The notes: a model not told the origin generated them from the letters alone. DNA of 64,000 nucleotides from Alphaproteobacteria bacterium (GCA_009693835.1 SHWM01000001.1:9571-73570), one strand, 5' to 3'; counted from the first letter of the stretch, positions 5,609 through 60,894 are shown. Made by a program: numbers and translations.

Positions 5609-8327
5609 TCAGATAGTTTTGCCGCGCCCCAGCCGGGCCACCAGAAGTTTCCGCGCCTCTTCGATCAAAACAATGGATAGGGCAATCGAAGAGGCAAACA
5701 GCCAGTCCAGCGCACTGAGCGGGCGCATATGGAAAATCTGCTGTGCAACCGGCCAGTTTATGATCAACACTAGAAAACCAACCACAGCCGCCAGCGCAGC
5801 CCATAATTTCCAGTTGCTGGTGAAATTGTGCCCAAAGACGGAACCTGTTTCCGAACGGACATTGAAGGCGTTACAGAACTGGAACAGCACAAACGTGGTG
5901 AACGCCAGGGTCGTGGCGCGCTGGTTCCCCCCCCCGTCGCCTCGCCATAAGCCAGCATCAGCAATGTCCCGGCCGCCATGATGGCCCCGTAAAAACCGAT
6001 CACCGCCAGACGCCTCCAAGACAGGACCCGTTCATCCGGATGGCGCGGTGGCGCATCCTGCAGGTTTGGATTGGCGGGATCAAGCCCCAGCGCCATCGCG
6101 GGCGGGCCATCCATGATGATGTTGACGAGCAGAATTTGCAGCGCGGTGAATAGCGCCGGGAGCCCGAGAAGCGGCGCAAGCAACAGTGTGAAAATCGCAC
6201 CCGCATTGGTGGAGACCTGGAAACGCAGAAATTTGACAATATTGTCGTAGATGCGCCGCCCTTCGATCACGGCGTCCACAATGGTGGCGAAATTATCATT
6301 GGTCAGCACCATATTTGCCGCCTCCTTGGCGACATCGGTGCCTGTGATACCCATGGCGATGCCAATATCTGCGGCCTTGAGCGAGGGCGCGTCATTGACG
6401 CCATCACCCGTCATCGCCACGACGTGGTTATTACGTTTCAGGGCTTGCACAATCTTAACCTTGGCTCCGGCGCCACCCGGGCAAAAATTCCAACCTGCTC
6501 CACACGCTCGGCCAAATGCTCCAGGCTCATGCTTTCCAGCTCCGCGCCGGTCAGGATATCACCTTCTATACCCAGTTCGGCGGCAACAGCCGCGGCAGTC
6601 AGCTTGTGATCGCCGGTAATCATCTTCACCTGAACGCCCGCGCGATGGCATAGGGCGATCGCCTCGCGGGCTTCCTTGCGCGGCGGGTCCATCAGGCCAA
6701 CGATGCCCAGAAAAGTCAGTCCCTGCACCAGCGCAACGTGATCGCCACACATATCAAATTCTTCCAGGGGCACGTCACGGCTGGCCACCGCCAGAACGCG
6801 CGAAGCCTGGGCCGCCATGCGTTCCACTTCCGTCATGATGGCTTGAGGAGCCAGCGCCGCGACGCCGTTGTTGGTCAGGGCCATACTGCACAGCGGAAGC
6901 AGGACCTCTGGCGCGCCCTTCACGTACAGCCGCACCACATTCCCCTGACGGTGAAAGGTCGCCATGAATTTGTGTGTGGAATCAAAAGGAATCTCGGCGG
7001 TACGGGGGAGCTGTACGTGCAGTTCCATGCAATTGACGCCACCCTTGGCAGCGATTACCAGCAGTGCGCCCTCCATCGGGTCGCCGGACACCTTGCCATC
7101 CGTTACGGCGCAATCCGTGCACAGCGCTGCCGGCTTCAGCAGCGCCATAAGGTCGGGCAGGGGGCCGCCGTCATCAGTGATGATCGTTCCCGCCATTTCA
7201 TAACCGACACCGCTTACGGAAAAGCGGCGGCCGAGAAAATGGAAGGATCGCACCATCATCTGGTTCAGCGTCAGTGTGCCGGTTTTGTCGGAACATATTA
7301 CCGTCGTACAGCCCAGGGTTTCTACCGAGGCAAGCTGCTTCACGATTGCCTGACGGCGCGCCATAAAATGCATGCCCATTGCCAGCGTAACCGTTACCAC
7401 CGCAGGCAGCCCCTCGGGAATGGCCGCCACCGCCAGCGCCACCGCCGTCAGCAGCGTGTCCATCAAGGGTTCGCCCCGCGCCAGCCCCCACACGAGAAGC
7501 AGAACTGCGACTGCACCCGCCAGTAACGCCAGCCGCCTTCCCACCGAGTCCAGCTGCACCTGCAGGGGCGTCATTTCGGTTTCGGCCGACGCCATCATCT
7601 GTGCGATATGGCCGGTCTGTGTTTGCATGCCAGTGGCAATGACCACGCATTCGCCGCGCCCGCGGGTAATTCAGGTGTTCATGAAAGCCATATTGGCGCG
7701 CTCGGCCAGAGGGATTTTGACGTCGCAGACCATTTCGGCGGTCTTGGTGACCGGAACGGATTCACCGGTAAAGAGCGATTCGTCGATTTCCAGTGTTGTC
7801 GCCTGTACCAGACGGCCATCGGCGGGAACGCGGCTTCCCGCGTCCAGCAGAACGATGTCGCCCGGCACCAGTTCGTCTGCGGGGATCTCCATGGCGACGC
7901 CGCCGCGCCGCACCCGGCAGGAGGTGGCGAGCATTTTCTTCAAAACGGAAAGGCTTTGTTCGGCGCGCTGCTCCTGTTGAAAGCCAAGAAACGCATTCAG
8001 CAGGATGACAAACAGAATGACCAGGGCGTCGGTAAAGTCGCCCACAATGCCGGCCAGCACGGCGGCAAACATCAGCACAACGATCAGATAGCTTTTGAAC
8101 TGGTCGACAAACAGCAGCCAGCTTGCCCTGCGTGGTTTTTCGGTCAACCGGTTCCAGCCAAACTGGTTGAGTCGCTGGGCAGCCTCAAGGCTGTTGAGGC
8201 CCGCTGCGGCGGTCACATCCAATTCACTTAAAATTTCGTTAGCGGGCCGCAAGTGGGCGGCGGCCGACAAGTCCAGGCCGGTTTCCATCTCATCATGGGG
8301 GCGCTGCGATGCGCTCGTTAAATTCAT
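5609..8327 (-). pseudogene. P-type cation-transporting ATPase (type II, Ca/Mg-like) split by at least 3 frameshifts
   Basis: Four consecutive minus-strand ORFs cover one ~900-aa protein. 7671..8327 holds the N-terminal Cation_ATPase_N, TM1-2 and actuator regions. 6438..7646 holds ICSDKTGTLT (phosphorylation site) and MITGDHKLTAAAVA. 5770..6450 holds VAMTGDGVNDAPSLKAADIGIAMG. 5609..6019 holds the C-terminal TM region FTTFVLFQFCNAFNVRSE. Frame switches fall near 7646-7671, 6438-6450 and a C9/G9 homopolymer at 5927-5935. Confidence 0.8.
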
Positions 8328-8414
8328 GCCATGTCGCGCCCCTGAAAATTACTCAATCCTTAAACCGTGGGCTAGCCAGCAGTTATGAGGATATGGTGCG
8401 CAAGGCGGGATCAC

Positions 8415-8929
8415 TCAAGGGTTTCCGTTCATGTGCTTGGGATTTAGGCGGTCCATAAGGGCGAACAGCACGCCGGAGGCTACAAAGGTCAGATGAATGC
8501 CCACCTTCCAGCTAAGCTGTGTATCGCTCAATCTTTCTGAATACATAAACGCTTTCAGCAGTTCGATGCGGATATGGCGGCGATTGAACCGATGACCTTG
8601 ATCTTCAGGTCGGAAAAGTCCACTTGCCCCATCCAGTCCGGGCGGTCCACATGATCTCCCGCATGCAGTTTGGAGACAAAATTTTCATAACCCGCATAGA
8701 CGATGATGATCAGCAGATTGGCGATCAGGGTAATGTTGATGAGGGACAGGATGCCGATTATGACCTCATCGCCGCTCGCGGTCATGATCCCGCCCGCCAG
8801 CGAGGAAAACTCATTGGCGAATTTGATTAGCAGCAGGACGATCGAAAGAACCAGACCAATATACAGGGGCGTCGGCAACCAGCGGCTGCCGAACAGCAGC
8901 CGCTCCAGTACATTCTCAATAATATTCAC
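8415..8929 (-). pseudogene. yqhA: UPF0114/YqhA family inner-membrane protein, frameshifted near 8565
   Basis: ORF 8555..8929 gives MNIIENVLERLLFGSRWLPTPLYIGLVLS...KIKVIGSIAAISAS. The -1 frame then continues IRIELLKAFMYSERLSD..GIHLTFVASGVLFALMDRL to a stop at ~8415. This tracks E. coli YqhA (ASIVAISSIHLLRVFMD...IIHLTFVLSAFVMGYLDRL) along its whole length. Confidence 0.65.
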
Positions 8930-8968
8930 AGCAAAAGATCCATATCAAACGGGATCGTTACACTGCCC

Positions 8969-10009
8969 TTATAGAACCGATTCGGCCAATAGCCGCATGC
9001 TGGCGGCGTTGGGCGCCCCGGCGAGCAGCGAGGAGATGTGGTTCTTCTTTCCAGCGGCAATATAGGCCTGCAAACGGTCCTTTACCCGGTCAGCCGGTCC
9101 CAGCAGCGCCACCTCATCGCAGAGCTTGTCCGGCACCTTGGCTGTGGCCTCGGCTTTCTTGCCGTCAAGATAGAGGTCCTGGATCTGTTTGGCTTCGGCT
9201 TCATAGCCAAGCCGTTTGGCGTAATCATTGTAAAAATTCTTGTCCCGCGCGCCCATGCCGCCAATGTATAACGCCAGCATATTCTTTACGGGGATGCGGC
9301 ACTTTTCCAGATCATCGCCGATGATCACATTCACGAACGGCATGATGGAAAAACTATCGAGGCTCTTTTTGGTAGCCGCCTTGGCAAAACCTTCCTTGAT
9401 GGCGCCATCGAACACGTCGAACCGGTCCGGGTTCATAAAGACCGGGATAAAGCCATCCGCCACCTCTGCGGCGACGGCCACGCCAGCAGGCGAAATCGCC
9501 CCGGTGACAATTTTCAGAGTCGGATCGCCGTGCAGAATGCTTTTCAGCGGCTTGCCCAGCCCGGTCGATCCCGGCCCGGTAAAGGGAATATGATAATGAT
9601 AGCCGTCATGCACCAGCGCTTCCTTGCGCTCCAGAATCTTGCGGATGATCTCGATATATTCGCGGGTGCGGGTCAGCGGGCGTCCATACGCCTCGCCGTG
9701 CCAGCCCTCGATCACCTGCGGGCCGGAAGGGCCAATGCCCATGATAAAACGGCCGCCGGACATTGCTGTCATGGTCATGGCGGTCATCGCCGCCATGGCA
9801 GGCGTGCGGGCCGACAGCTGCATGATGGCGGTGCCCACATTGATCTTGGTGGTGCTGGCCAGCAGCCAGGCGGCGGGAGAAACGGCGTCTGACCCCCAGG
9901 CTTCGGCTGTCCAGACGCTGTCAAAGCCGAGGCTTTCCCCTTGCCGCACCAGCTCGACCTGATTTTCAAATTTTCCGCCGGAATAACCAAGCGTCATGCC
10001 TAATTTCAT
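8969..10009 (-). CDS. LLM-class (luciferase-like) flavin/F420-dependent oxidoreductase
   Basis: A 346-aa ORF with bacterial luciferase-like TIM-barrel family features (GRFIMGIGPSGPQVIEGWHG; C-terminal region). It is a tandem paralog of the next gene. Confidence 0.8.
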   Translation of the reverse strand: MKLGMTLGYSGGKFENQVELVRQGESLGFDSVWTAEAWGSDAVSPAAWLLASTTKINVGTAIMQLSARTPAMAAMTAMTMTAMSGGRFIMGIGPSGPQVIEGWHGEAYGRPLTRTREYIEIIRKILERKEALVHDGYHYHIPFTGPGSTGLGKPLKSILHGDPTLKIVTGAISPAGVAVAAEVADGFIPVFMNPDRFDVFDGAIKEGFAKAATKKSLDSFSIMPFVNVIIGDDLEKCRIPVKNMLALYIGGMGARDKNFYNDYAKRLGYEAEAKQIQDLYLDGKKAEATAKVPDKLCDEVALLGPADRVKDRLQAYIAAGKKNHISSLLAGAPNAASMRLLAESVL

Positions 10010-10033
10010 ATGCTTTCTCCTTGATGAATGAGT

Positions 10034-11038
10034 TTACGCCGCCAGTTCCCTGATCAGCGCCGGGCGCTTTTCGGGGGGTACGAAGCCGAAGCTGAGGCTG
10101 AACCGGTCTACCAGTCCCGAATAGCGGCTTTTGAGCATCGGCACGATTTCATACGGCTCGCCTACCACGGCAAAAATGTCCAGCATCTCGTCATCGATCA
10201 GGTCGCCCATTTCGACCCATTTGCCCTGTTTGGACATCAGGTTCAGTTGAGGCTGTAATGTGCTCCAGCCATGCATATCGAGAACACCGCGATAGGCGGG
10301 CGTCGATCCGTAAAAGGCGATGCGCTGTTTGACGGCCTTCTTGCTTTCAGCAAATTCCTTTTCGTTCTGTCCTGAAACGATGAACACCGGATAAGACAGC
10401 TCGAACGTGTTGCGCGCACGGCCGCGTTTTTTCAGGCCCGCGTCGACGATGGGCAACGTCATCTGTTTGAGATATTTTACGGAAGTCATCGGATGCACCA
10501 TAATGCCGTCAGCGACATCCGCCGCCACCTCGGTCATCATCGGACCAACCGCCGCCAGGAAAACGCGCGGTGCGCCAAATTTACTGGGGGTTGGTGTAAA
10601 CACCGGCGTCATCAGGGTGTGCGAATAGAACTCGCCCCGGAAATTCAGCGGCACGCCGTCATACCAGTTGGCCCAGATGGCCCGCATCGCCAGGATCATT
10701 TCACGCATGCGCGGGGCAGGGTGCGACCATGGCATGGAAAAGCGCTTTTCGATATGCGCTTTGATCTGCGAGCCGATGCCCATGATGAAACGGCCCTGTG
10801 AAAAATCGTTCAGATCATTGCCAACGGCGGCCATGTTCATCGGATTACGGGCAAAAGCGACGGCGATAGCCGTGATCAGTTCTATCTTCTTGCTATGCTC
10901 GGCAGCCAGCATCAGGGGAAGAAACGGGTCATGCCCGGTTTCCACCGATTGCGCCCCGTTAAAGCCTGCTGCCTCGAGCTGGACAATACGTTCCGTGATT
11001 TTTCCCATTCCCATGGGCAGTTCGCCGTCTACTTTCAT
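10034..11038 (-). CDS. LLM-class (luciferase-like) oxidoreductase, second copy
   Basis: The ORF runs 10034..11107. The probable start is the internal Met (MKVDGELPMGMG...). The GRFIMGIGSQIKAHIEKRF motif is shared with the neighbouring LLM gene. Confidence 0.8.
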   Translation of the reverse strand: MKVDGELPMGMGKITERIVQLEAAGFNGAQSVETGHDPFLPLMLAAEHSKKIELITAIAVAFARNPMNMAAVGNDLNDFSQGRFIMGIGSQIKAHIEKRFSMPWSHPAPRMREMILAMRAIWANWYDGVPLNFRGEFYSHTLMTPVFTPTPSKFGAPRVFLAAVGPMMTEVAADVADGIMVHPMTSVKYLKQMTLPIVDAGLKKRGRARNTFELSYPVFIVSGQNEKEFAESKKAVKQRIAFYGSTPAYRGVLDMHGWSTLQPQLNLMSKQGKWVEMGDLIDDEMLDIFAVVGEPYEIVPMLKSRYSGLVDRFSLSFGFVPPEKRPALIRELAA

Positions 11039-23271: not shown

Positions 23272-25140
23272 TTGACGAATAGTATGGTCGATCAAACACC
23301 GGTCCTGCCCGTGACTTTCTGGCGGCGCGCCGCAGCTCCTGCCGCAGCTCCTAAAGAACCGGCCAGGGAAGCTATCTATGCCGTTGACGCTGACGAAAAT
23401 GTTTCGGCATTTCCCGGCCCTGCCATTCTGTTTGGGTCAGACGGCGCACTCCTATCCGCCAATGGCGGGGCGGAGCGGCTGGTCAGGGCGATAGCGGTGG
23501 GGGAAGCGGCGGATGTCAGGACACTGCTCGCCAGCGTGGCCGCGACCGACCGGCCCGCAATGGGCCAGATATTTTTGCCAGCGGACCCGGCGGCCGGTGA
23601 AGAGCAGGCGCTGTTTTATTTAACGGCTCTCGCAATCGAACAAAAAGGTTTGCCAAAGGACTTTCCCCAGTCTGGCGCGCGCCGTGTGATGCTGCTGGGG
23701 CGCGATGGCAGTGCGGAATACGCCATGCGGAACGCCCTCATTGCCTCGCGTGAACTGTATCGTGACCTGTCGCGCTGCTCATCGGATTTCCGGTGGCAGA
23801 CAGATGAGAACGGCGCCTTTACTTTTGTCAGCCCAAAAGGTGCGCTGAGCTACAGCGCTCAGGCGCTAAACGGCCGCCGCAGTCACGACCTGTTTGATAA
23901 AGGCGTAAAATCACCGCAGGAAAATCCGTTCGTCAGCAGAGCGTCAGTAGAGGCCGTGGAAATCATTCTGCGAGACGCGAATGGCGAGGTCCGTCATTGC
24001 CGTGTCGATGCGCTGCCGGTGTACGACAAACTGAATCAGTGGCGCGGAGCGCGTGGCGTCAGCACGGACATCACCGATGCCCGGCGGCAGCAACAGGCGC
24101 TGGAGTTCCTGCAAAAGCGCGAGATGCAGGCACGGGAGATTGTGGAAGCGGCCAATAAAAGTCTTGATCCGGTTCAGGCCTTCAATGAGGCAGCCATACT
24201 TCTGGCGCACGCCACCGGGGCAGCGCGCTGTAAAATTCTGAGTCTGGACAACAAGAAAAGACTGCGGATTCTGGGTGTCTCAGAAACGGCGGGCCACCAG
24301 GACTATCAGCCTGTCCTGACACGCATTGAGCTAGAGCTTCACGAGATGCAATACGGTCAGGATTGCGACCCCATAATTTTCCAGGAAGATGGGCAAACGC
24401 ACCAGATTACCATCACCATGCATGCCGGCGCGCCCAATGCCGTCATCTGGCTGCAAAACCCGGAAACCGAAAATACGCCGCCGCCAGAGGACGCTCCCTC
24501 ACAGGCTGGCCAGCGTTCGCTCGCGCAGACGGTGGCCGGAAATATTGGCGTAGCCATCGCGCATGACAATCAGATGCGCCGCCTTGCGGAACTCTCCCGG
24601 ACGGATGAGTTGACCGGGCTGATGAACCGGCGGGCCTTCATGGAGGACCTGCACCATCGGCACGGGCATCTGTATCGCATCTCGCGTACGGGCGCGCTGC
24701 TTTACATTGACCTGGATAATTTCAAACCCGTCAATGACCAGTACGGCCATGAGGCGGGGGACAGGGTCCTGAAAGCGTTCGCCAATATCCTCATGGGGCA
24801 GAGCCGGATTGGGGATCTTTGCGCGCGGCTGGGCGGCGATGAATTCGCCATCTGGCTGGAGGATACCGACGCGGGCGGGGCAGAGGTAAAAGCGCGCCAT
24901 TTGATAAATGAATCCAGAGATCTGTGCCGGCTGGCGGGCATAGCGCCCCGGCCGGATGCGCCAATCCTGGGGCTTTCCGTGGGCGTCGCCGTCGCCGACC
25001 CGGGTTTCCCGGAACAGTTGCAGCAGCTTATCAAACGGGCGGACGAAGTGATGTATCAGGTCAAGCGGAGCGGAAAGGGATCCATGATCGTCTCTCAGGG
25101 GCCGCTTGAAGCTGGCGCTGCGGGACACGGACGGGAATGA
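23272..25140 (+). CDS. Sensor diguanylate cyclase (PAS/GAF-like N-terminal region plus GGDEF)
   Basis: The C-terminal GGDEF domain contains RLGGDEF (an intact A-site), DELTGLMNRRAF and LYIDLDNFKPVNDQYGHEAGD. Confidence 0.85.
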   Translation: MTNSMVDQTPVLPVTFWRRAAAPAAAPKEPAREAIYAVDADENVSAFPGPAILFGSDGALLSANGGAERLVRAIAVGEAADVRTLLASVAATDRPAMGQIFLPADPAAGEEQALFYLTALAIEQKGLPKDFPQSGARRVMLLGRDGSAEYAMRNALIASRELYRDLSRCSSDFRWQTDENGAFTFVSPKGALSYSAQALNGRRSHDLFDKGVKSPQENPFVSRASVEAVEIILRDANGEVRHCRVDALPVYDKLNQWRGARGVSTDITDARRQQQALEFLQKREMQAREIVEAANKSLDPVQAFNEAAILLAHATGAARCKILSLDNKKRLRILGVSETAGHQDYQPVLTRIELELHEMQYGQDCDPIIFQEDGQTHQITITMHAGAPNAVIWLQNPETENTPPPEDAPSQAGQRSLAQTVAGNIGVAIAHDNQMRRLAELSRTDELTGLMNRRAFMEDLHHRHGHLYRISRTGALLYIDLDNFKPVNDQYGHEAGDRVLKAFANILMGQSRIGDLCARLGGDEFAIWLEDTDAGGAEVKARHLINESRDLCRLAGIAPRPDAPILGLSVGVAVADPGFPEQLQQLIKRADEVMYQVKRSGKGSMIVSQGPLEAGAAGHGRE

Positions 25141-25144
25141 TGCG

Positions 25145-26263
25145 ATGCTGAAAAAATTACTGAGCCGGCTTCCGTTTAGCAGGAAACTGCCGCAAAATCT
25201 TGAATATGAAACCGCGCGCGCGGCGCTGGAGAAAAATCATCTGGCGCAACGCACGGAGCTTGCGGGCCGGGCCGATTCCCCTCCTGAGATGCTTTACTAT
25301 CTGGCTGGTGATGAGTCGCCGAAAGTGCGCCGGAAGGTGGCGATAAATCCGCGAACGCCGATCCACGCGGATGAACTGCTTACCGGGGACCGGGACGATG
25401 AGGTGCGCTGCGAACTGGCGCGCAAAATCGCCCGCCTTATTCCGGGGCTTCCCGATGACGCCCAGGTAAAGCTTCGCGAACGGATGGAAACGATACTGGA
25501 AAAGCTGGCGGCGGATCACCTGCCCCGGGTGCGCCAGATCGTGGCCGAGGAAATTAGACATTCGGATAATGTTCCAAAGAGAATTGCGCTGCGCCTGGCG
25601 AAAGATCTGGAAGCGGTGGTGCGCGCGCCCATTCTGGAATACTCGCCGCTATTGTCCGATGATGATCTTTTACAGATCATCGCCAGCGGAATTGTCGATG
25701 GGGCGACGGCGCCGATCGCCAGACGCCGCGAGGTCAGCGAGCCCGTGTCCGACGCCATTGTCGCCACATTGGACGTATCGGCAGTGGCGGCGCTGCTCGC
25801 AAACCGAAACGCCCAGATCCGCGAAGAAACGCTCGATACCATTATCGAGCAGGCCGAAGACATTCACCAATGGCACAGGCCCATCGTGATGCGTCCTGAA
25901 CTGCCGTTGCGCGCCGTGCGCCGGGTGGCTGGGTTTGTCGCCTCCTCGCTGTTGACAATTCTGCTTGAGCGAAAGGATATTGATCTCGATGCGGAGACAT
26001 CCGACATGCTGAGAAAAGCCATCCGGGAGCGCATTAATGTTGAAGATAGTTTTGGGCAGCCGGATGAACTGGCGTTGGGGCTCAACGCGCGCCAGGCTCA
26101 CGAGCAGGGTCAACTAAACGACGCCAGCATTTCGGCTGCGGCGACGGCCCATCGCAGCGACTATGTTATTGAAGGGCTGGGCCTGAGAGCCGGAATTCCG
26201 GAGCGGATCGTCCGGCGCATCATAGACGCAAGAAGCGGCAAGGCGATCACCGCTCTGGTATGA
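25145..26263 (+). CDS. DUF2336 domain-containing protein
   Basis: A ~370-aa alpha-helical repeat protein. The ORF runs from 25106 with a probable start at MLKKLLSRLP. It is adjacent to and co-directional with the GGDEF gene. Confidence 0.65.
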   Translation: MLKKLLSRLPFSRKLPQNLEYETARAALEKNHLAQRTELAGRADSPPEMLYYLAGDESPKVRRKVAINPRTPIHADELLTGDRDDEVRCELARKIARLIPGLPDDAQVKLRERMETILEKLAADHLPRVRQIVAEEIRHSDNVPKRIALRLAKDLEAVVRAPILEYSPLLSDDDLLQIIASGIVDGATAPIARRREVSEPVSDAIVATLDVSAVAALLANRNAQIREETLDTIIEQAEDIHQWHRPIVMRPELPLRAVRRVAGFVASSLLTILLERKDIDLDAETSDMLRKAIRERINVEDSFGQPDELALGLNARQAHEQGQLNDASISAAATAHRSDYVIEGLGLRAGIPERIVRRIIDARSGKAITALV

Positions 26264-26552
26264 AAGGCGGGATTATCGATGCGCACGGCGCTTGAGGTGC
26301 AGAAAACCATTGGCCGGGTGGCTCGCCCCGATCTGGTGCTCGCCCGTAACGGGGTGGACTATCCCATGGATGAGGACGAGCTGCGCTGGCACCTGCAATA
26401 TTTTGACGTGCCCTTATAGATTTCCAGCGTCCGGAGCGGTCCATCAGGCGGTTTGACCGTCCTGAACAAGCGATCTCGTCAATCGCGTGATAGCAATTGA
26501 TTGAATGTGGCACTTGACGCATCATCGCTTCATAACTGCTCAAAATGAGGCG

Positions 26553-28599: not shown

Positions 28600-28643
28600 A
28601 GCGTGTACCATTTAATCATCTGTCTATTGATTTTAACCGTTTT

Positions 28644-30021
28644 CAACTTCCCGGTTTTGGCATTGATTCAATAGTACCGTCATATTTGCGCAGCCGCGCC
28701 TCTTCGCGATTTTCGTATTCCTTGTTAAGGCGCATATCGACAGAACCGAAGATTGGGTCAATCCGCCCCACGAATTTATTATTGCGCACATCAATTTTGC
28801 CGAGAATGTTGCTATTTTTGCTGAACAGTCAACGGCAGCAGCGATTGGCGTCGTCATAGATGATCCAGTTGTTTTCAACTGTAATCTCATGCGCCCCGCC
28901 GGGCACGATGCGGCTGGACTCGCCGGCATAGGCTATAAAATTATGGTTCTGCGTATTGGGTCCAAGTTGCAGCACGCTGCTTTTGACTGTAAGTTTTCCA
29001 CCTCCATAGGCGTCGATGGCTGTACCGCCATTGCCTTCCAGTGCGGCAAGAACACTATTCTCGACTAGGATGGATCTGGCGCCGGTCTTCAATAGATGGC
29101 CATCATTTGAAGCCAGAATTTTTACGTTGCGCAGGATTGCATTGGTGCCGCCATTTATATACATGCCGTGCGCCCTGCCCCCTTGCCATGACCCGAAAAC
29201 AGCGAATCCTCGATGGTCATCACGCCGTCTTCCTTGGCCACGCCACCCAATAGCCCATTCTCGCTGTTGAGGCAGATAACGTCCCTGATCAAAATTTTCC
29301 GGCTAGGAGGCTCTATGCGCAAACAGGCCCCATTGTGGTCCGGCACCGTTATCTCACTGATTTACAGTCCTGTGATGGTGACATCCGGGGCGGCTACAAC
29401 GACAGCCCCCTTGCCCTTGCAGGCAATTTTTTTCAGATGGGCGCGGCTTCCATCCGCACCAATCTTTCCCACCAGTTTCATCGACTTCTTTATCAATGCG
29501 CAGTCAAAATAATCGCCCGGTTCGACAGTGAGAGTGCCCCCTTCGGCAACCAGCGCAATGGCGTCGGCTAATTTACTGGCATCGCATCCGGCCGCACACA
29601 TGGATACATTCATGCTGAGGCTGCCGGAGGCGCGGCCCCGCGATTTGGGCTCCGGCTTATTGGGTTCTGACTCAACGGGCTCCGAATCGGCAGAGGAGGA
29701 AACAGGTCCGGTAATTTTTCCGGACGGCGCCGTACGCGCCTCCAGAACCCGGATGCGGGACTTCGTGTCGACCATGTCTTTTTCCAGTGCGCCAATGCGC
29801 GACACGATCATCTCCAGCGCCTTGTTGAGATTGTTCCGCAATTCGGTGAGGTCGGCTTCGCTGGCCATCCTGGCGCTATTCATGCCCATCTGTTCTTTTA
29901 TCCGCGCCGAACGGTCCTGGCCGTCTGACTGCGCGAGGGCCATGCCGCAAGACACGTGCATCAACCAGACGGAAAATAAAACTGTGATGGCGAATAGCGG
30001 CCGGCGTCGCAACAATTTCAC
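28644..30021 (-). pseudogene. Secreted right-handed parallel beta-helix (pectin-lyase-fold) protein, interrupted by 2 frameshifts and an in-frame TGA
   Basis: Three pieces cover the gene. 29362..30021 holds a signal peptide, a coiled-coil and the start of the beta-helix. 29155..29346 and 28829..29164 hold beta-helix repeats (NGLLGGVAKEDG; ILVENSVLAALEGNGGTAIDAY). After a TGA at ~28829 the same frame stays open for 61 further protein-like codons (LFSKNSNILGKIDVRNNKFVGRID...). Coordinates are good to about 1 nt. Confidence 0.55.
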
Positions 30022-35199: not shown

Positions 35200-35674
35200 G
35201 TGTTGAGCGCGCAGACCAAGGCCGTCATCAAATCCACAGCTCCGGTTTTACAGGAGCACGGCAAGGCGATCACCGCCCGCATGTATCAGATCGCATTCGC
35301 GGCGCGCCCTGAATTTAAGCGATTTTTTGAAAATACCTGGATGAAGTTTCCCGCCAGGCGGGCCGCAACCGGCGCGGCTGGCCGAAGCTGTGTGCGCCTA
35401 TGCGCAGAATATTGATAATCTGGATGCGTTGAAAGCGCCTCTGGAGCATATCGCCCGCAAACATGCCGGCACACGAGTTACTGCCGAGCAGTATCCGGTC
35501 GTTGGGACGTGTCTGTTGCAGGCGATCAAGGATGTCCTGGGGGATGCGGCAACGGCCGAAGTCATGACCGCCTGGGGGCTGGCCTATAATTTTCTGGCCG
35601 ATACGCTGATTAATCTGGAAAAACAGATTTATCGCGAGGAAGACGCGAAAATGACGGCTGGCGTTAAAAAATAA
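35200..35674 (+). pseudogene. Single-domain bacterial haemoglobin (Vgb/Hmp-N-terminal-like), frameshifted near 35350
   Basis: ORF1 (MLSAQTKAVIKSTAPVLQEHGKAITARMYQIAFAARPEFKRFFEN) matches the Vgb N-terminus. ORF2 in another frame (AYAQNIDNLDALKAPLEHIARKHA...VVGTCLLQAIKDVLGDAATAEVMTAWGLAY) matches helices E to H. The join falls at a CCC run around 35350-35356. Confidence 0.65.
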
Positions 35675-38309: not shown

Positions 38310-39138
38310 ATGCCAGGAGTGTTGCGGGGCGCGGGAGCGGTTGTAGCGCTGTGTGCTGGCTTTTATTCCATGCAGGCGCAGGCGGCATGGCTGCAGACAA
38401 AGGGCGAGGGGCTGATCATCGGCTCCGTCAGCACCTATCATTCCCATGTACGTTTTGACCGCCAGGGATTGAGATCGGCCGGCAGGAAGTACAACAAACA
38501 GAAATTATCCGTTTACGGAGTTTATGAGCTGACCGGCAGACTGACGGTGGGCGCGCAGCCGAGTTTCTTTCAGGTGCGCACCGAAAACGGCATTTCGTCC
38601 GGCCGTGAGAGCATGCAGGGCCTCTCGCAGATCGATCTGTTCGCCAGGACAAGAATTGCTGCGGCCGATTACTGGATTTTGTCTGGCCAGGCCCTGCTTA
38701 AATTTCCCGGCCCAAGGGCCGTGGACCGGGAGCCACTACTTGAAAATGCGAGCCGCGACGCCGAGGCCCGCCTGCTGTTGGGGCGAAGCGGGCGGGCGGC
38801 TGGTCAGGCAATTATTGAATATTGAATTTTTTTCTTCCATAGAGGCTGGCTACCGGGTCAGGGACGGCGGCGCCGCAGACCAGTGGCGGGCGGATGCGGC
38901 CTTTGGGGTGCGGCCCCTGCAGAATTATCAGATCATTGTGCAGAGTTTTAATATTGTTTCCTCTCGAACGCCTGAGGATTCTGATCCCACGGCCTATGAT
39001 TTATTCAAGGCGCAGATTTCTGTCGTGCGGGATCTTCCGCATGGCATGGCCTTGCAGGCTGGCGCGTCCAGTGAATATGCAGGGCGCAATATTGGGGCCG
39101 GCAATGGCCTGTTCATGGCCGTCTGGTCACGCTTTTGA
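38310..39138 (+). pseudogene. Hypothetical outer-membrane beta-barrel protein (C-terminal Phe), frameshifted at a T7 run (~38828-38834)
   Basis: ORF1 38310..38825 has a signal peptide (AVVALCAGFYSMQAQA) and beta-strand-like segments. ORF2 from ~38810 continues in another frame (FFSSIEAGYRVRDGG...GNGLFMAVWSRF) and ends in the aromatic C-terminal residue typical of OMPs. Confidence 0.5.
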
Positions 39139-43139: not shown

Positions 43140-43184
43140 GCAGCGGTGTCGGGGACGTCGGCGAGGGTTAGCCAGTCGCCTGGA

Positions 43185-48623: not shown

Positions 48624-49136
48624 TTATTTCTGTTCCACGACGCGTTCGGTGACCACGCCGACGCCGCGCGCGGTGATCACCAGCTCGCCCTTTTGATCGC
48701 GATATTCGCTGATGGTTTCGCTGAATTTCAGCTTGCCGGATCGCTTGCCCTCCTTTTCCCATTTCTTGCCGGGAAGGATGGTGACGCTCAGTACATCGCC
48801 GGGCCGCAGCGGCCGGTGATATTCAAAATGCTGCTCGGCGTGCAGGCCCCCGCCGCCCCCGCCGCCTTCCTTCTTCTCGCCTTCGGTTTTGGGCTTGGGG
48901 GGTGTGCCAGTCGGTGTTTTGCCCGATCCCATCCAGGGCTTGCCAACCTGCGGGCGCAGGACAAAGTTAGGTTCGAACTGTGCGCTGGCCTGCGCGAAAG
49001 TGGGCGGCGCGATGATGCCGCCGCTTTCGGTCTTTTTGGCGTAATCTTCATCATAATAAACCGGGTTTTCGTCGCCGACCGAGCGCGCGAACATCATGAT
49101 ATGGGTCGCCTCCACGGGAAATTTCTTCTCCGCCAT
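48624..49136 (-). CDS. MaoC_dehydrat_N / FAS1-like hot-dog dehydratase subunit
   Basis: A 170-aa protein (FARSVGDENPVYYDEDYAK) with an internal Pro/Gly-rich linker including a G7 run. It pairs with the downstream MaoC gene like HadA/HadB two-subunit dehydratases. Confidence 0.7.
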   Translation of the reverse strand: MAEKKFPVEATHIMMFARSVGDENPVYYDEDYAKKTESGGIIAPPTFAQASAQFEPNFVLRPQVGKPWMGSGKTPTGTPPKPKTEGEKKEGGGGGGGLHAEQHFEYHRPLRPGDVLSVTILPGKKWEKEGKRSGKLKFSETISEYRDQKGELVITARGVGVVTERVVEQK

Positions 49137-49197
49137 CTGGATATCCTCTCTGCTTGTGTTTTACTCGGGGCAGTGTAAGCGATGCGGGGCGGGCGGC

Positions 49198-50033
49198 TCA
49201 AGCAATGCTTTTGGCCAGCCTGTCGAACGCCATCAGCGTGGCCAGAAGCGCCGACATGTCTTTCAGATGCACCATGTTGGGACCGTCGGAAGGCGCGTGG
49301 TCCGGATCCTGATGGGTTTCCATGAACACACCGGCGACGCCAACGGCAACTGCCGCCCGCGCCAGCACGGGCACAAATTCGCGCTGGCCGCCGCTAGTAG
49401 ATCCCTGGCCTCCTGGCTGCTGCACCGAATGCGTGGCGTCAAAAATCACCGGACAGCCGGTCTGCGCGGCCATGATCGGCAGGGCACGCATATCCGATAC
49501 CAGCGTATTATAGCCAAAGCTGGCGCCCCTTTCGCACAACAGGACATTCGGGTTTCCAGCGCCGAGGATTTTATCGGCCACATGGCGCATGTCCCAGGGC
49601 GCCAGAAACTGGCCTTTTTTGACATTCACGGCTTTGCCGGTGGCCGCTGCCGCCAGCAGCAAATCCGTCTGCCTGCAGAGGAAGGCCGGAATTTGCAGCA
49701 CATCCACCGCCTGTGCCGTGCGGACGCATTGTTCAGGCAGATGCACATCCGTCAGAACCGGCAAACCATATTTTTCGCGCACGTCGGACAGAATGGGCAG
49801 CGCCGCATCAAGGCCAAGGCCGCGAGGCGTGGCTGCGCTGGTCCGGTTGGCCTTGTCAAACGAGCTTTTGTAAATCAGCCCGAGGCCAATTTTGACGGTA
49901 ATTTCTTTTAGCGCGTGCGCCATTTCAAGCGCATGCTCGCGGCTTTCAATCTGGCAGGGTCCGGCAATCAGGATCATCGGCAGTCGGTTACTGATGCGCA
50001 GCCGGCCAACCGCCACTTCACGCTGGACGGTCA

Positions 50034-54522: not shown

Positions 54523-54609
54523 TTATGTGACCGTATCGCGGGAGCATAATCTGAGATACATTCAGGCTAAATTACTAAGCTATAATATTCTATTTGCTGA
54601 GGAATACGG

Positions 54610-55971
54610 ATGCTGAGTCGTCTGCGCTTTACTAATTTTAAGGCTTGGGGGAAGGTTGACTTGGGGTGTGCGCGGGTGACCGGGTTGTTTGGGACAAATT
54701 CCTCGGGAAAAACCAGCATTCTCCAGTTTCTATTGATGTTGAAACAAACCAAGGAAGCGACCGACCGGGCCATATCTGTGGAGTTGAACGGGGAATATGT
54801 GCAGCTCGGCACGTTCCGTGACACAATCCATCTTCATGACGAAAAAGGTCCATTGAAATTAATGTCGAGTTTGTGCGTGATAATAATCTTGTATTGAACG
54901 ATCCAACGCGTGGGCCAAAAGCGGTCCTCGTTAGCGCGAAGTCATTTACCCTTGAGGCGAATGTCGCATCAGTAAAGGGGGCGCCGCGCACGAAGCTGCT
55001 GAAGTATGGCATTGGTGATTTTAAATTCTCGTTACAGCCGCGAAATGGAGATGATAAGCAGTTCGAGTTGAAGCTGGATGGGGCAAGTCAACAATCAGTT
55101 TTCAAATTTATCCGCACTCAAGGGCGAGCCTGGCAGTTGCCGGGCCCGGTTAAAATTTATGCCTTTCCAGATCAGACTCGCGCCTATTTCCAGAATGCCG
55201 CATTTCTTTCTGATCTTGAGGTAGCGTTCAAGGAAGAGATGGATCGTATTTTCTATCTGGGGCCTCTTCGCGAATATCCGAAGCGGGACTATCTTTGGGC
55301 GCGATCCCGCCCTAGCGATGTAGGCCAACGCGGAGAAAAGGTAATCGACGCCATTCTTGCGGCTACCGGGGCTAAGGAAACTAGGAACCTTAGCCCTAAG
55401 TCACGTCATAAGCCATTTCAGGATATGATTGCCCACTGGCTGCGCGAAATGGGTTTGATACATGAGTTCAAGGTAGCGGAAATCGCGGCGGGCACTAACC
55501 GGTGGCAGGCGCGTGTTCAGACGAAGCCCGGATCTGCGGAGGTGCTGCTCACTGATGTCGGATTTGGTGTTTCACAAGTGCTGCCCGTCATTACTCTACT
55601 CTATTATGTGCCGGAAGGATCAACAGTCATTCTGGAGCAACCAGAGATTCATCCGCATCCGCTGGCTCAGGCTCATCTTGCCGATCTGATTCTAAACGTG
55701 GCGCAGCACAGAAAGATACAGGTAATCTTGGAAAGTCATAGCGAGCACCTGCTCCTCCGGCTGCAGAGACGCATTGCAGAAAAAAGCTATATGCGAGGAC
55801 GTCAAATTATATTTCTGCGAGACTCATCGTGGTGAATCCAGCCTTGTTCCGCTGAACCTTGACATGTTTGGCAGCATAGATAACTGGCCAAAAAACTTCA
55901 TGGGCGATGCCTTTGGTGAAACATTAGCGGCTGAAAAAGCACGCCTCAAGCGGATGCAAGCAAATAGATAA
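54610..55971 (+). pseudogene. DUF3696-type ABC/AAA_21-like ATPase (candidate defence ATPase), interrupted by two homopolymer frameshifts
   Basis: Piece 54610..54897 has the Walker A LFGTNSSGKTSILQ after a LRFTNFKAWG N-terminus. Piece 54873..55835 has Walker B and the H-loop region (VILEQPEIHPHPLAQ; ILESHSEHLL). Piece 55774..55971 continues the DUF3696-like C-terminus (VKLYFCETHRGESSLVPLNLDMFGSIDNWPKNFMGD). The frame changes at an A5 run (~54842-54846) and an A6 run (~55780-55785). GC is about 47% against about 60% for the flanks. Confidence 0.65.
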
Positions 55972-56471
55972 TGCGTTATGTCGTGGATACGAATGTGGCT
56001 ATTGTCGCCAATGGTTATTCGAACCCGTCTAAAGGCGAGAAGCCTCCGTCGATTGAATGCCGTCTCGAAACTTTGAACTTTCTTGAGAGATTGCTAAGCA
56101 ACGGCAAGATCGTCCTTGACGATGGCGGTGCCATTCAGGCGGAGTATCATAGATATCTCAACCCTCGTGGTCAGCCGGGGATGGGTGACCGCTTCTATCA
56201 GGAAGTATTAAACAGTGCTCCTGAGCGCATAGAACGGGTCGACTTGCCAATGAACGCTAACGGCGAATACGAGCACTTTCCAAGTCACATAGACCTTCGG
56301 AGTTTTGATAGGGATGACCGTAAATTCACGGCTTTAAGTTGTAAGGAACGTATCCCAGTCGCAAATGCGACCGATTCAGATTGGCTGAACTATCGTGACA
56401 TTCTTGCACAGCATCATATTTCGGTTAAATTTGTCTGTGGGTGCGATCAGCGAAAGTGGTTTTTAAAATAA
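55971..56471 (+). CDS. Hypothetical 166-aa protein with N-terminal PIN-like motif (MRYVVDTNVAIVANG); candidate nuclease effector partnered with the upstream ATPase
   Basis: Its ATG overlaps the TAA of the ATPase gene (tAATG), which indicates translational coupling. An hhhhDTNV first strand and several downstream acidic residues are compatible with a PIN/PIN-like fold. GC is low. Confidence 0.5.
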   Translation: MRYVVDTNVAIVANGYSNPSKGEKPPSIECRLETLNFLERLLSNGKIVLDDGGAIQAEYHRYLNPRGQPGMGDRFYQEVLNSAPERIERVDLPMNANGEYEHFPSHIDLRSFDRDDRKFTALSCKERIPVANATDSDWLNYRDILAQHHISVKFVCGCDQRKWFLK

Positions 56472-56478
56472 AAAATTA

Positions 56479-56700
56479 TTATAGGGATATGCACCGTTTA
56501 TCGGGCTGTAAGCTTAATGTTGAATGTCCCTCAACCCCCGCCTTCGCCACAAACGTAACCCCCGGCGGCCCGTCAAAATGCGCGTCGCAGGTCAGCAGCT
56601 CGGCGCCGTGTTCCAGGGCCGTGGCGTAGACAATCGCATCGGCAGTGGCGAATTTATGCAGGCGGCAGAGTTCCGCCGCCGCCAGCGAGATTTTGGTGTC
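56479..56700 (-). pseudogene. Truncated VapC-family PIN toxin remnant (C-terminal ~60 aa only)
   Basis: Reverse-strand translation gives LDTKISLAAAELCRLHKFATADAIVYATALEHGAELLTCDAHFDGPPGVTFVAKAG, a typical VapC C-terminus. The N-terminal half is missing and the ORF ends at the CTAG-flanked element at ~56700. Confidence 0.55.
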
Positions 56701-56743
56701 TAGAGCGGTATGATTTTATATTGAATCACCCCGATCACTGTGT

Positions 56744-56873
56744 CACCTGAGCCTGTCCCCGGGCTGGCCAAAGGCCAGTCCCGGGGACACTTGTTGCGGG
56801 GTCCAGGGTACAATACGCAGGCTTACCCTTGTGGCCCTGGACCCCGGAACACAAGCGGGGTGACAGGCTGAAG
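56744..56873. mobile_element. MITE-like element with nested palindromes, related to the 5399-5507 copy
   Basis: Its termini are cacctgagcctgtccccggg ... ccggggtgacaggctgaag, and the right end is near-identical to the right end of the 5.4-kb copy. An internal perfect hairpin gtccccgggctggcc-aaa-ggccagtcccggggac and a second ggggtccaggg/ccctggacccc stem are present. TCTAGA-like sequences lie at 56698 and 56906. Confidence 0.55.
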
Positions 56874-56984
56874 TTCTGGCATTTGCAAACTTAATATCAT
56901 CATGATCTAGACTTCCATCCAGCCAGATTGCGTCATTCAGGGGGCATATCCAGTCCGGTTCATTCGGGCGGCCGCCTGCGGAAA

Positions 56985-59300: not shown

Positions 59301-59756
59301 TTAGACCTTGAGAATATCCTCAAGATGTTCCGCGAGCTGATGCGGCGTCAGGTGGGTGAGATCCTTGTTCAGTTCGGCCTTTATCAGCTTGGCCGCCTGT
59401 GGGTCGAGTTCGGTGCGAAGCTCCCCCAGGGCTTTCGGCGGCGCCACAATCACCAGCTGCTCAAACGCATGTGTATTCAGCCCCTGCCTGACCTCCGTCG
59501 CCACCTGACGGATGAATTCATGCTCGGCATGCACATGCGGGTCAGTGTGCGGCGCTACGGCGCGGCGGCCGGGCCCCGCGCTGCTGAAACTGACGCCAGA
59601 CCGGTCGCTGCCCATTTCATGACTGGGCAGCCTGTTGCCGATCAGGTCATGATCCATGGCGGGAACCAGCCCCGTGCCCGGCCCTTCAATCAGAAAGATG
59701 CGCGCACGCGCGCCATCGGCCACAACAACCCATGTCTTTTTATGTTTTATCTTCAT
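59301..59756 (-). CDS. Host-attachment protein family (Host_attach, PF10116-like)
   Basis: A 151-aa protein with a conserved N-terminus (TWVVVADGARARIF), mid region (HAFEQLVIVAPPKALGELR) and C-terminus. Confidence 0.65.
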   Translation of the reverse strand: MKIKHKKTWVVVADGARARIFLIEGPGTGLVPAMDHDLIGNRLPSHEMGSDRSGVSFSSAGPGRRAVAPHTDPHVHAEHEFIRQVATEVRQGLNTHAFEQLVIVAPPKALGELRTELDPQAAKLIKAELNKDLTHLTPHQLAEHLEDILKV

Positions 59757-60231
59757 CTGCGTACTCCGGCGTTTCCAGATCCATTTTAAGCGCCAGCAGC
59801 CGCAAAATATCCTTTAACGCCACGACGCCGGTCAGGCGGTCCTCCGTAAGGACGATCAGGCGGCTGTTGCCGGAACGTTGCATCATGGCTATTGCGGCCA
59901 CGGCGTCGGCATTCGCGTCAATCATATTCCCCGTGGAACAGGGCAGCATGATTTCGCGAACCGGCCTATCTTGCCATTGAGACTGTGGCACATGTTTGAT
60001 CTGGCTCAAACCCACACTGCCCAGCACGCGATTTCCGTCAACGACGGGATACATATCATGACCATAGACATAGATATAATTTTCCACCAGTTCGCGAAGA
60101 CTCAGATGTGGCGGCACGATAACCGGATCACGTGTCATGAAGCGGTGCACGGGCTGGCCCTCAAGGGTCTGCCGGGTGCGCAGCTGGGTATAGGACGAAC
60201 CCGCGGCGCGGTTCAGGAACAGTCCGATCAC
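59740..60231 (-). CDS. CBS-domain pair protein (possibly the C-terminal half of an M50-CBS protease separated by an in-frame TAG)
   Basis: Two CBS motifs are present (PVHRFMTRDPVIV...; VREIMLPCSTGNMIDANADAVAAIAMM...). The upstream reading frame is continuous with the M50 ORF except for one TAG at 60265-60267. Confidence 0.6.
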   Translation of the reverse strand: MIGLFLNRAAGSSYTQLRTRQTLEGQPVHRFMTRDPVIVPPHLSLRELVENYIYVYGHDMYPVVDGNRVLGSVGLSQIKHVPQSQWQDRPVREIMLPCSTGNMIDANADAVAAIAMMQRSGNSRLIVLTEDRLTGVVALKDILRLLALKMDLETPEYADEDKT

Positions 60232-60264
60232 GGCAATCCAGACACCACCAACCAGATCGCCGCG

Positions 60265-60894
60265 CTATACGTTCAGCAGCCCCAGCGCCATAAAGCCAAA
60301 GCCAAAGGCCGATCCAATCCTTGAGGCATGCTTCGTCGCCCAGCGCATATTACCCTTCCAGCGCCACAGGGCGGCGCGCAGCACCCGGCCGCCATCCAAC
60401 GGGAAAGCGGGGATCAGGTTGAAGGTTGCCAGCATGGCGTTGATCATGGCGAGATAACCCAGCAGCGCCCCGAAAGGCGTCAGATCGCCGCCCGGCCCGG
60501 TAACGGACGCGATGGTCAGAAACGCCAGCGCCAGCGCGTAACTGGAGATGGGTCCCGCAATCGCCATCAGAAACTCGACCTTGGGATTTTGAGGTTCACC
60601 CTCCATCTCGGCCACGCCGCCAAAAATGAAAAGCGTAATGCCATTAATCGGCAAACCATGCAGCCGCGCCACCAGGGAATGACACATCTCATGGAAGATG
60701 ATCGAGCCAAACAGTCCCAGCGCCCCCAGCGCCCCGATGCTCCAGTATGTCTCGGGAGCCAGGCCGGGTATGACGGCGGGAAAATAGCTGGTGGACAGGG
60801 ACCAGGTGACAAGCGTGGCGAGCAGAACCCAACTGGCGTCGAGTTTCACCTCAAAGCCAAACAGACGGAAGAGTGTGATATGCTTGCCGAACAT
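60265..60894 (-). CDS. M50 (site-2 protease) family zinc metallopeptidase domain protein
   Basis: The HEMCHSL (HExxH) motif, the LDGG motif (NLIPAFPLDGGRVL) and multiple TM segments are present. The ORF ends at a TAG that is in-frame with the downstream CBS ORF. Confidence 0.75.
   Translation of the reverse strand: MFGKHITLFRLFGFEVKLDASWVLLATLVTWSLSTSYFPAVIPGLAPETYWSIGALGALGLFGSIIFHEMCHSLVARLHGLPINGITLFIFGGVAEMEGEPQNPKVEFLMAIAGPISSYALALAFLTIASVTGPGGDLTPFGALLGYLAMINAMLATFNLIPAFPLDGGRVLRAALWRWKGNMRWATKHASRIGSAFGFGFMALGLLNV

Follow-up and report, generated by a model that had tools for sequence, protein, structure and literature searches.

Broken genes in a 64-kb genome window of a planktonic alphaproteobacterium from Lake Baikal: probable recent, lineage-specific pseudogenes

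INTRODUCTION

The pseudogene fraction of free-living bacteria is usually 1 to 5%. High pseudogene density, losses among surface, export, defence and stress genes, and low diversity are typical of recently host-restricted bacteria. Pseudogenes have accumulated under recently weakened selection in Mycobacterium leprae, Sodalis glossinidius, Yersinia pestis, Salmonella Typhi and Burkholderia mallei. Many of their pseudogenes are young and carry one to three lesions each, with nonsense changes, small indels and deletions occurring side by side; population diversity is very low, and envelope, transport, defence and stress genes have been lost while the core is intact. The 64,000-nucleotide stretch of DNA analyzed here (the window) resembles these genomes in the youth and mix of its lesions, in the kinds of function lost and in its low population diversity. 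It differs in that, within these 64 kb, the Baikal lineage shows no indicated host, no insertion sequence expansion and no shift in G+C content.

RESULTS AND DISCUSSION

Source and extent of damage

The window derives from the oxic deep water of Lake Baikal, from an uncultured alphaproteobacterium whose MAG proteins at NCBI include MSP41767.1 and MSP41810.1. Proteins of the window recur in the ENA assembly ERZ1305449 and in Logan contigs of two runs, SRR8561390 and SRR8561391, which are Illumina-sequenced Baikal metagenomes from the planktonic 0.22-µm fraction at 1250 m and 1350 m. No previous account of pseudogenes in this MAG turned up in a literature search.

Eleven of the approximately 63 protein-coding loci in the window (about one gene in six) are broken. 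They occupy 16% of the bases, and the intact coding density is 74%. The lesions comprise five nonsense substitutions, eight small indels and at least two larger deletions. Four of the small indels lie in runs of five or more bases (A5, A6, G5 and G9); the remainder are one 4-bp duplication, one 2-bp deletion and two 1-bp deletions outside runs. Homopolymers are thus involved in none of the nonsense codons and in half of the small indels. The initial annotation had listed eight broken loci, and all eight were substantiated by intact syntenic orthologues or by profile coordinates. It had counted only two in-frame nonsense codons, and a premature stop in a DUF2336 gene and the stumps of an export gene and of a VapC toxin lie beyond its list.

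Two ATPases have been lost, one a Ca-type pump and one of defence type, together with yqhA, the DUF2336 gene and an exopolysaccharide locus. The other losses are of genes for a globin, a toxin, a membrane protease, a beta-helix protein and an outer-membrane protein (OMP). As first proposed, accessory, envelope and defence functions were struck, while translation and core metabolism are intact. No broken gene was found between 42 and 54 kb, so the damage is spread unevenly along the window. Rfam searches of the gene-poor spacers explained none of them, the sole matches in the window being a TPP riboswitch and a tRNA-Leu, and comparison of the window with itself returned two short repeat pairs and nothing more.

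P-type ATPase and yqhA

5609..8327, minus strand: P-type IIA (Ca2+-type) ATPase pseudogene (tblastn and DNA alignment to intact syntenic orthologues)
8418..8929, minus strand: yqhA (UPF0114/TIGR00645) pseudogene (three-frame reading, orthologue and DNA alignment)

The ATPase gene carries three lesions. A TGC (Cys) codon has become TGA at 7671-7673, one base has been deleted at 6463/6464, away from any run, and a G9 run specific to this lineage (read as C9 on the plus strand, 5927-5935) has slipped by −1. Three frameshifts had been reported originally; the slip in the run is confirmed, but the third lesion is the TGA and not a shift. Intact syntenic orthologues of 905 to 908 amino acids with 76% identity are present in contigs of relatives (L092, L093, L095 and L096), and the orthologue scores as a Ca-ATPase in NCBIfam. 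A database search with a 402-aa piece of the ATPase gave a best identity of 57% among the matches listed. The absence of orthologues that this search had suggested proved wrong, as the 76%-identical syntenic genes were reached through their yqhA neighbours. A plasmid collection searched with the ATPase region gave no match.

The run length varies in the population. It is G9 in the window and in the SRR8561390 contig (L084), and G10, which is in frame, in the SRR8561391 contig (L085); a 192-aa product in one ENA contig implies a third length. A coding G run of 9 to 10 bases with in-frame and out-of-frame lengths in one population recalls the contingency loci of Neisseria, Haemophilus and Campylobacter, which switch by slipped-strand mispairing. 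However, the ATPase has two more fixed lesions and no functional "on" state, and alignment showed that the run is not present in relatives. As both the G9 and the G10 haplotype keep the TGA and the 1-bp deletion at 6463/6464, switching of the run cannot restore the protein. Phase variation as a working ATPase switch was therefore rejected, and the G run behaves as neutral slippage within a dead gene.

In yqhA, a 1-bp deletion at 8567/8568, close to the break first noted at about 8565, shifts the frame of the last ~50 codons, and family sequence resumes past the shift in the three-frame reading. The repaired protein of 171 aa matches 171-aa orthologues with up to 87% identity at 100% coverage. 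Across this gene, two Logan contigs match the window exactly.

Exopolysaccharide locus and VapC stumps

20617..20920, minus strand: 3' stump of a group-1 glycosyltransferase, last ~95 codons (Pfam profile coverage, frame reading)
20922..21038, minus strand: 5' stump of an XrtA/PEP-CTERM exopolysaccharide export gene (identity to the N-terminus of the L007 protein)
56482..56715, minus strand: 3' stump of a VapC-type PIN toxin (Pfam profile coverage)

A single glycosyltransferase remnant had been recorded at 20617-21054. The stump is real and covers only positions 78 to 139 of 142 in Pfam Glyco_trans_1_4, but it ends at 20920, and the following stretch is the export-gene stump, which had been missed. 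This second stump consists of the first ~40 codons, including a signal peptide and lipobox, and is 64% identical over 39 residues to the N-terminus of an intact 212-aa protein of the relative L007. The latter scores 233.8 bits against TIGR03027 (cut-off, 180). The relative L008 also has the export gene, followed by a chain-length-determinant-like gene. As the 5' stump of the export gene adjoins the 3' stump of the glycosyltransferase gene, one deletion must have fused the two. The VapC stump covers only positions 72 to 115 of 120 in Pfam PIN. Both exopolysaccharide stumps were seen in the window alone, and the VapC stump in the window and in contigs L088 and L089.

DUF2336, beta-helix, globin and outer-membrane protein genes

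25106..26416, plus strand: DUF2336 gene with a premature stop (codon alignment; six orthologues align through the stop)
28643..30021, minus strand: secreted right-handed beta-helix (NosD-like) pseudogene (six intact orthologues of 445 to 463 aa)
35200..35674, plus strand: single-domain globin pseudogene (DNA alignment to six intact orthologues)
38310..39138, plus strand: outer-membrane protein pseudogene, 272 to 276 aa in orthologues (tblastn frame switch, sequence reading, four intact orthologues)

The DUF2336 gene is interrupted by a TGG (Trp) to TGA change at 26261-26263, which removes the conserved last ~51 of 424 codons (12%, at the C-terminus). The ENA and Logan contigs contain the same split into 385 and 46 aa. 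The truncated protein might retain some function.

Two shifts and a TGA at about 28829 had been described for the beta-helix gene, whose product matches the Beta_helix and NosD profiles weakly. The TGA is present (TGG to TGA, 28829-28831); the supposed shifts are a 1-bp deletion in a G5 run (29178-29182) and an AAA to TAA change (29362-29364). One haplotype (L091, SRR8561391) equals the window, and the other (L090, SRR8561390) has an additional G5 to G4 deletion at 29537-29541.

The globin break had been placed correctly, at about 35350 near a CCC. The lesion is a 2-bp deletion at ~35350/35351 adjoining the CCC, and repair by one inserted base fails, as two are missing. The repaired globin spans positions 2 to 116 of 117 in Pfam Globin and aligns to the N-terminal domain of flavohaemoprotein. 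Logan contigs of both runs equal the window at this locus.

The OMP gene encodes a signal peptide and a C-terminal Phe. Its frameshift had been attributed to a T7 run at 38828-38834. This run, which is in fact at 38827-38833, was discarded as the lesion since it is in frame and conserved in the orthologue alignment. The gene is instead broken by a 4-bp tandem duplication (GGGC GGGC, 38790-38797), and at this locus the Logan contig matches the window letter for letter.

AAA/DUF3696 ATPase and M50/CBS protease genes

54610..55971, plus strand: pseudogene of an AAA_15/AAA_21 ATPase with C-terminal DUF3696 (three-frame reading, profile coverage)
59740..60894, minus strand: pseudogene of an M50 site-2-protease with a CBS pair (read-through against single-chain orthologues)

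The two shifts first proposed for the AAA/DUF3696 gene, in an A5 run (54842-54846) and an A6 run (55780-55785), were verified by three-frame reading and are both present in both Logan runs. The repaired protein of 453 aa matches AAA_21 positions 1 to 303 without a break and DUF3696 at residues 396 to 438, and the stop in the third frame shares bases with the start ATG of the downstream gene. The in-frame TAG of the M50/CBS gene (60265-60267) likewise held, with Leu at that position in all seven orthologues. Read through, the protein is 67 to 84% identical to 377-aa single-chain orthologues. Logan and ENA record a 209-aa product, and the split gene might retain some function.

Could the breaks be functional?

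Phase-variable repeats, programmed frameshifts or recoded stops (selenocysteine, or TGA read as Trp) could in principle make such breaks functional. The in-frame G10 haplotype would fit a phase-variable repeat, the ATPase TGA aligns with Cys, and the two other TGAs align with Trp. However, the remaining ATPase lesions persist in both haplotypes, and relatives are without the run. Conserved intact genes in the window end in TAA (18), TGA (16) and TAG (13), so the code is standard and stops are stops. No stable hairpin was found downstream of the ATPase TGA (z = +1.26). With 16 intact genes ending in TGA and no hairpin at this one, stop reassignment and selenocysteine insertion were rejected. 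TAA and TAG also occur among the premature stops, and by sequence reading the A6 site is out of register for a slippery heptamer. Functional breaks are therefore improbable in the extreme.

Reproducibility and population structure

The per-run Logan contigs cover 35.3 kb of the window and differ from it by six SNPs (four of them transitions) and two homopolymer indels; every covered lesion is present. Those of the ATPase, yqhA, beta-helix, globin and AAA/DUF3696 genes were seen in both runs, and those of the OMP and DUF2336 genes in SRR8561390 only. The population is thus nearly clonal, with lesions fixed or nearly so at two depths. A minority of cells could conceivably carry intact alleles, as the G10 variant does for one of the three ATPase lesions. 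Length polymorphism was seen at only two sites, G9/G10 in the ATPase gene and G5/G4 in the beta-helix gene. Both genes were dead beforehand, and such variation is what neutral sequence should show.

The initial annotation had left open whether the homopolymer shifts are errors of the 454, IonTorrent or nanopore type and had argued that at least part of the damage is biological. The latter view can be extended, as two Illumina samples carry the same lesions. It is true that the four indels in runs of 5 to 9 bases and the two runs that vary in length between assemblies resemble the homopolymer artefacts of long-read, 454 or IonTorrent assemblies, and miscalled runs or mixed-strain consensus errors could break intact genes. 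However, the data are Illumina short reads, and separate assemblies of two libraries reproduce the shifts at A5, A6 and G5 along with all other covered lesions. Moreover, most lesions are not changes in run length (five substitutions, a 4-bp duplication, a 2-bp deletion, two non-run 1-bp deletions and two large deletions), and relatives, which are metagenome assemblies too, are nearly free of breaks. A sequencing or assembly artefact is accordingly very improbable. Illumina reads, agreement of two samples and lesions outside homopolymers together indicate that all damage in the broken loci is biological and not sequencing error.

Comparison with relatives and timing of gene loss

Syntenic orthologues are intact in approximately 12 related genomes, and nucleotide alignments to them reveal the ancestral codon or base at the lesions. 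An intact orthologue occupies the same genomic position for the ATPase, yqhA, DUF2336, beta-helix, globin, OMP and M50/CBS genes, and the export gene has an intact full-length orthologue in relatives (L007, L008). The calls for the AAA/DUF3696, glycosyltransferase and VapC genes were based on profile coverage.

Comparison with orthologous loci in related genomes had been proposed from the outset, and it showed the relatives to be almost entirely intact. Approximately 2 of ~175 gene instances in relatives are broken, whereas 7 of the 54 window genes in the comparison are. Between 21 and 42 kb, the figures are 4 of 21 for the window genes and 1 of ~130 for gene instances from relatives (Fisher p = 0.0013). 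Greedy gene sets were used for these counts, avoiding spurious opposite-strand ORFs. The ratio of window-to-relative to relative-to-relative identity was 0.93 to 1.00 for broken genes and 0.91 to 1.07 for 14 of 15 intact genes, the outlier being LysRS (1.24). The lack of excess divergence in the broken genes indicates recent, lineage-specific inactivation.

Cause of gene loss

The broken loci are very probably genuine, recently formed pseudogenes of one lineage, produced by ordinary mutations. Stop substitutions, small indels and larger deletions have each disabled a dispensable gene. Weakened purifying selection, which we infer as the cause, could stem from a relaxed need for these functions in the habitat or from drift after a bottleneck or clonal sweep. 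Relaxed selection or drift is compatible with the data.

Relaxed selection or host restriction had both been suggested originally, and the second part finds no support. Early decay following a recent switch to symbiotic or parasitic life, as in M. leprae or Sodalis, would fit the high pseudogene density, the losses among surface, export, defence and stress genes, and the very low population diversity. However, the Pfam annotations of window genes contain no transposase family, G+C content is not lowered (57.9% versus 54.5 to 58.3% in relatives), and nearly three-quarters of the window is still intact coding sequence. Furthermore, the DNA was collected in open deep water, as part of the planktonic fraction, the relative contig L096 is labelled as a groundwater metagenome, and no feature of the window suggests a host. 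A host-restricted origin is thus unlikely.

We assign a similarly low probability to a mutator clone, in which loss of mismatch repair would have set off a burst of transitions and of slips in runs, which then became fixed by hitch-hiking during a clonal sweep. The share of small indels in short runs, the run-length polymorphism between samples, the excess of transitions among the SNPs, the near-clonal population and the recent age of the lesions would all agree with this. However, the counts are far too few to define a spectrum, and transversions account for three of the five nonsense changes. The window's essential genes are undamaged, although purifying selection would ensure that anyway, and mutS and mutL lie outside the window.

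Weakened purifying selection on dispensable genes remains the preferred explanation. More speculatively, a free-living Baikal plankter may be in an early burst of genome erosion after a recent bottleneck or sweep on entering its habitat, possibly aided by a mutator phase; we put this forward tentatively, as a possibility that is more doubtful than not.

Implications for genome reduction and annotation

Such a density of young pseudogenes is unusual for a bacterium collected from plankton (~17% of loci here versus ~1 to 3% in relatives). If it holds genome-wide, this genome would join the few on record that are rich in pseudogenes without being host-associated, and would offer a natural snapshot of the first stage of genome reduction in open water, with no known host. 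The losses are dated and interpretable, and close relatives with intact genes are at hand for comparison. As the breaks in this public MAG are biology and not error, annotation should label the loci as pseudogenes and not as short "proteins"; one ATPase fragment, for example, has been deposited under the name "HAD family hydrolase."

Gene disruption in the window

Eleven of the ~63 protein-coding loci are pseudogenes or stumps and make up 16% of the bases, a damage rate that is known for these 64 kb only, within which the 42-54 kb block holds no broken genes; intact genes occupy 74% of the bases. This confirms and extends the observation of many broken genes in the initial annotation, which had not included the DUF2336 gene.

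Dead loci (window positions)
5609-8327, minus strand: P-type ATPase pseudogene; orthologues intact (905-908 aa, 76% identical)
8567/8568: yqhA pseudogene, 1-bp deletion; once repaired, the 171-aa protein aligns with 171-aa orthologues over its full length
20617-~20920: glycosyltransferase stump; last third only of the Glyco_trans_1_4 profile
20922-21038: XrtA/PEP-CTERM exopolysaccharide export lipoprotein stump; first ~40 codons, directly upstream of the glycosyltransferase stump
26261-26263: DUF2336 gene, TGG to TGA; 51 conserved codons lost
29362-29364, 29178-29182, 28829-28831: beta-helix pseudogene; AAA to TAA, 1-bp deletion in a G5 run, TGG to TGA
~35350/35351: globin pseudogene, 2-bp deletion
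38790-38797: outer-membrane protein pseudogene, GGGC duplication
54842-54846, 55780-55785: AAA_21/DUF3696 ATPase pseudogene; shifts at A5 and A6 runs
56482-56715: VapC stump; positions 72-115 of 120 of the PIN profile only
60265-60267: M50/CBS protease pseudogene, TAG; Leu invariant there in seven orthologues

Most breaks lie where the initial annotation had put them, namely in yqhA (~8565), the globin gene (~35350), the glycosyltransferase and VapC remnants, the M50/CBS protease and the AAA_21/DUF3696 gene. Repair of the last restores a single-stretch AAA_21 match, a DUF3696 match emerges, and the native stop and the next gene's start codon overlap. The P-type ATPase gene had been read as carrying three shifts. 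Alignment with its orthologues instead reveals one nonsense codon (TGC to TGA, 7671-7673) and two shifts: a 1-bp deletion at 6463/6464 (GAACATAAG to GAGC-CAAG) and a G9 run at 5927-5935, specific to this lineage and in its -1 state, which is the run already suspected. Likewise, the TGA of the beta-helix gene stands, but one shift and an AAA to TAA change replace the two shifts proposed. The outer-membrane protein gene is indeed broken, but not at its T7 run, which lies 30 nt downstream of the GGGC duplication and is conserved and in frame.

The export lipoprotein gene is whole in two related contigs, L007 and L008 (TIGR03027). The abutment of the glycosyltransferase 3' stump and the export-gene 5' stump, with the junction at ~20920, indicates that a single deletion removed the body of the exopolysaccharide locus.

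The ATPase TGA aligns with Cys in the orthologues. Recoding is ruled out, as all three stops are in normal use (18 TAA, 16 TGA and 13 TAG end conserved intact genes), no stable structure was found after this TGA, and two further lesions disrupt the gene.

Sequencing error and strain variation

Homopolymer indel errors had been raised as the alternative to decay. Window gene products have exact matches in ERZ1305449, an ENA assembly, and in Logan contigs built per run from SRR8561390 and SRR8561391, winter Lake Baikal metagenomes from 1250 m and 1350 m (PMC7678222) based on Illumina data of ~150 nt (PMC9948471); window proteins are also deposited in an NCBI Alphaproteobacteria bacterium MAG (MSP41767.1, MSP41810.1). 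Over ~35.3 kb, Logan contigs assembled separately from the two runs differ from the window by six SNPs and two run-length indels, and every lesion that they cover is present in them. Contigs of both runs carry the A5 and A6 shifts, the yqhA and globin deletions, both fixed ATPase lesions and all three of the beta-helix gene; the GGGC duplication and the DUF2336 stop were seen in contigs read from SRR8561390 only. Logan also has a record of the 209-aa M50 product. Runs of at least 5 bases hold only four of the eight small indels, and the lesions also include five substitutions and two large deletions. As the lesions are reproduced and most are not run-length changes, platform error is rejected. 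The damage is thus biological throughout, and not just in part, as had been argued from two in-frame nonsense codons and the N-terminal deletions; both codons are confirmed, and there are five such stops in all.

Two runs vary in length. That of the ATPase has nine Gs at 1250 m (G9) and ten, which restores the frame, at 1350 m (G10); a third length is implied by an ENA contig. In the beta-helix gene, another G5 run is shortened to G4 at 1250 m, so that the contig of that depth has one more shift. Both genes are already disabled by other fixed lesions; the length changes are therefore neutral slippage within dead DNA, and phase variation is ruled out. The ATPase pseudogene also holds three of the six SNPs. 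The window is a mosaic of the haplotypes of the two samples: it agrees with the 1250 m contig at the AAA island and the ATPase, and with the 1350 m contig at the beta-helix gene. What was deposited is therefore a consensus over very close strains.

Lineage specificity and age

MgtE, used to scan species-representative genomes, yielded eight syntenic loci in related MAGs (84-88% protein identity), which span window 21-42 kb at 70-84% DNA identity. Four further loci, found via neighbours of yqhA orthologues, span 0-17 kb; comparators for 57-64 kb came from an M50 orthologue, and metagenomes scanned with the M3 peptidase supplied those for 37-54 kb. A word-indexed protein search with an ATPase piece gave nothing above 57% identity among the matches listed, although full-length orthologues at 76% are present in NCBI MAGs; as every listed match was <705 aa, this search seems to miss long proteins.

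Comparison of orthologous loci, a check suggested earlier, showed the relatives to be mostly intact: seven of 54 compared window genes are broken versus ~2 of ~175 gene instances in the reciprocal comparison (Fisher p = 0.0013 for the 21-42 kb block alone). The two are an in-frame stop in MgtE (L007, 6808-8187) and a stop in a luciferase-like gene (L096, 7619-8656). In L004 (11961-12227), an MgtE 3' fragment is duplicated and adjoins an insertion.

Age was indexed per gene as window-to-relative identity divided by relative-to-relative identity. Broken genes gave 0.93-1.00 and 14 of 15 intact genes 0.91-1.07, the outlier being LysRS (1.24). The dead genes thus show no added divergence, and on the time scale that separates these species their inactivation is recent. 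A collection of 5.8 billion proteins contains no near-identical intact allele of either M50 or yqhA.

Possible causes

Gene decay is supported, and this is a new case of a well-known process. Accessory, envelope, defence and stress genes were lost and core genes are intact, in agreement with the earlier view that non-essential functions are hit. Weakened purifying selection in a lineage that is nearly clonal fits this pattern; a mutator clone is a possible but less likely cause. Host restriction, previously proposed beside relaxed selection, is unsupported, since the Pfam annotations of window genes include no transposase family, G+C is not below that of relatives (57.9% versus 54.5-58.3%), the sample is planktonic and one relative's contig is from a groundwater metagenome. 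The density of broken genes is notable because the bacterium was collected as free plankton. The gene content (DUF2497, GapR, DUF1244, class-I LysRS) is typical of Alphaproteobacteria.

Repeats, spacers and variable loci

A palindromic, G+C-rich intergenic element occurs in two copies, 80% identical, at 17561-17644 and 48045-48131 (CACCCCACCCCAA...GGGGTGGGG); both copies form long hairpins when folded (z = -3.2 and -3.6), and the element resembles REP or MITE repeats. Of a 53-nt inverted repeat pair (85% identical), one copy (5364-5416) is immediately downstream of the dead ATPase and the other (56856-56908) is beside the VapC stump.

The ~2-kb GatB-ATPase spacer (3646-5608), without Rfam matches, has as its sole gene a 98-aa lysine/alanine-rich HC2 (histone-H1-like) gene at 4773-5069. 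Relatives have a matching gene-poor spacer (L092, 9108-10844; L093, 3390-4908), so it is not a lineage-specific gene graveyard.

At junctions 10009-10034, 12775-12794, 49136-49198, 43139-43185 and 60894-60957, the window lacks genes that relatives (L086, L092, L095, L096, L100, L101) carry: a pentapeptide-repeat protein and HTH gene between two luciferase-like genes, a PIN and PhdYeFM pair, a 138-aa and 78-aa pair, a 339-aa gene and a nitroreductase. These may be clean deletions in the window lineage or insertions in relatives. The variable island 54523-56984 comprises the AAA_21/DUF3696 gene, an intact 166-aa PIN-like gene (two SNPs between samples) and the VapC stump; L101 (19106-21757) has unrelated genes in its place, and the island's edge is where contigs L086 and L087 stop.

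A lone 78-aa FliN/FliM C-terminal-domain gene (33979-34215) has no flagellar neighbours and is kept in all relatives; it is called as 57 aa in an ENA contig from this sample, a hint of a further difference between haplotypes. A perfect 28-nt palindrome (35697-35724), probably a bidirectional terminator, is found where the globin and MAPEG genes converge.
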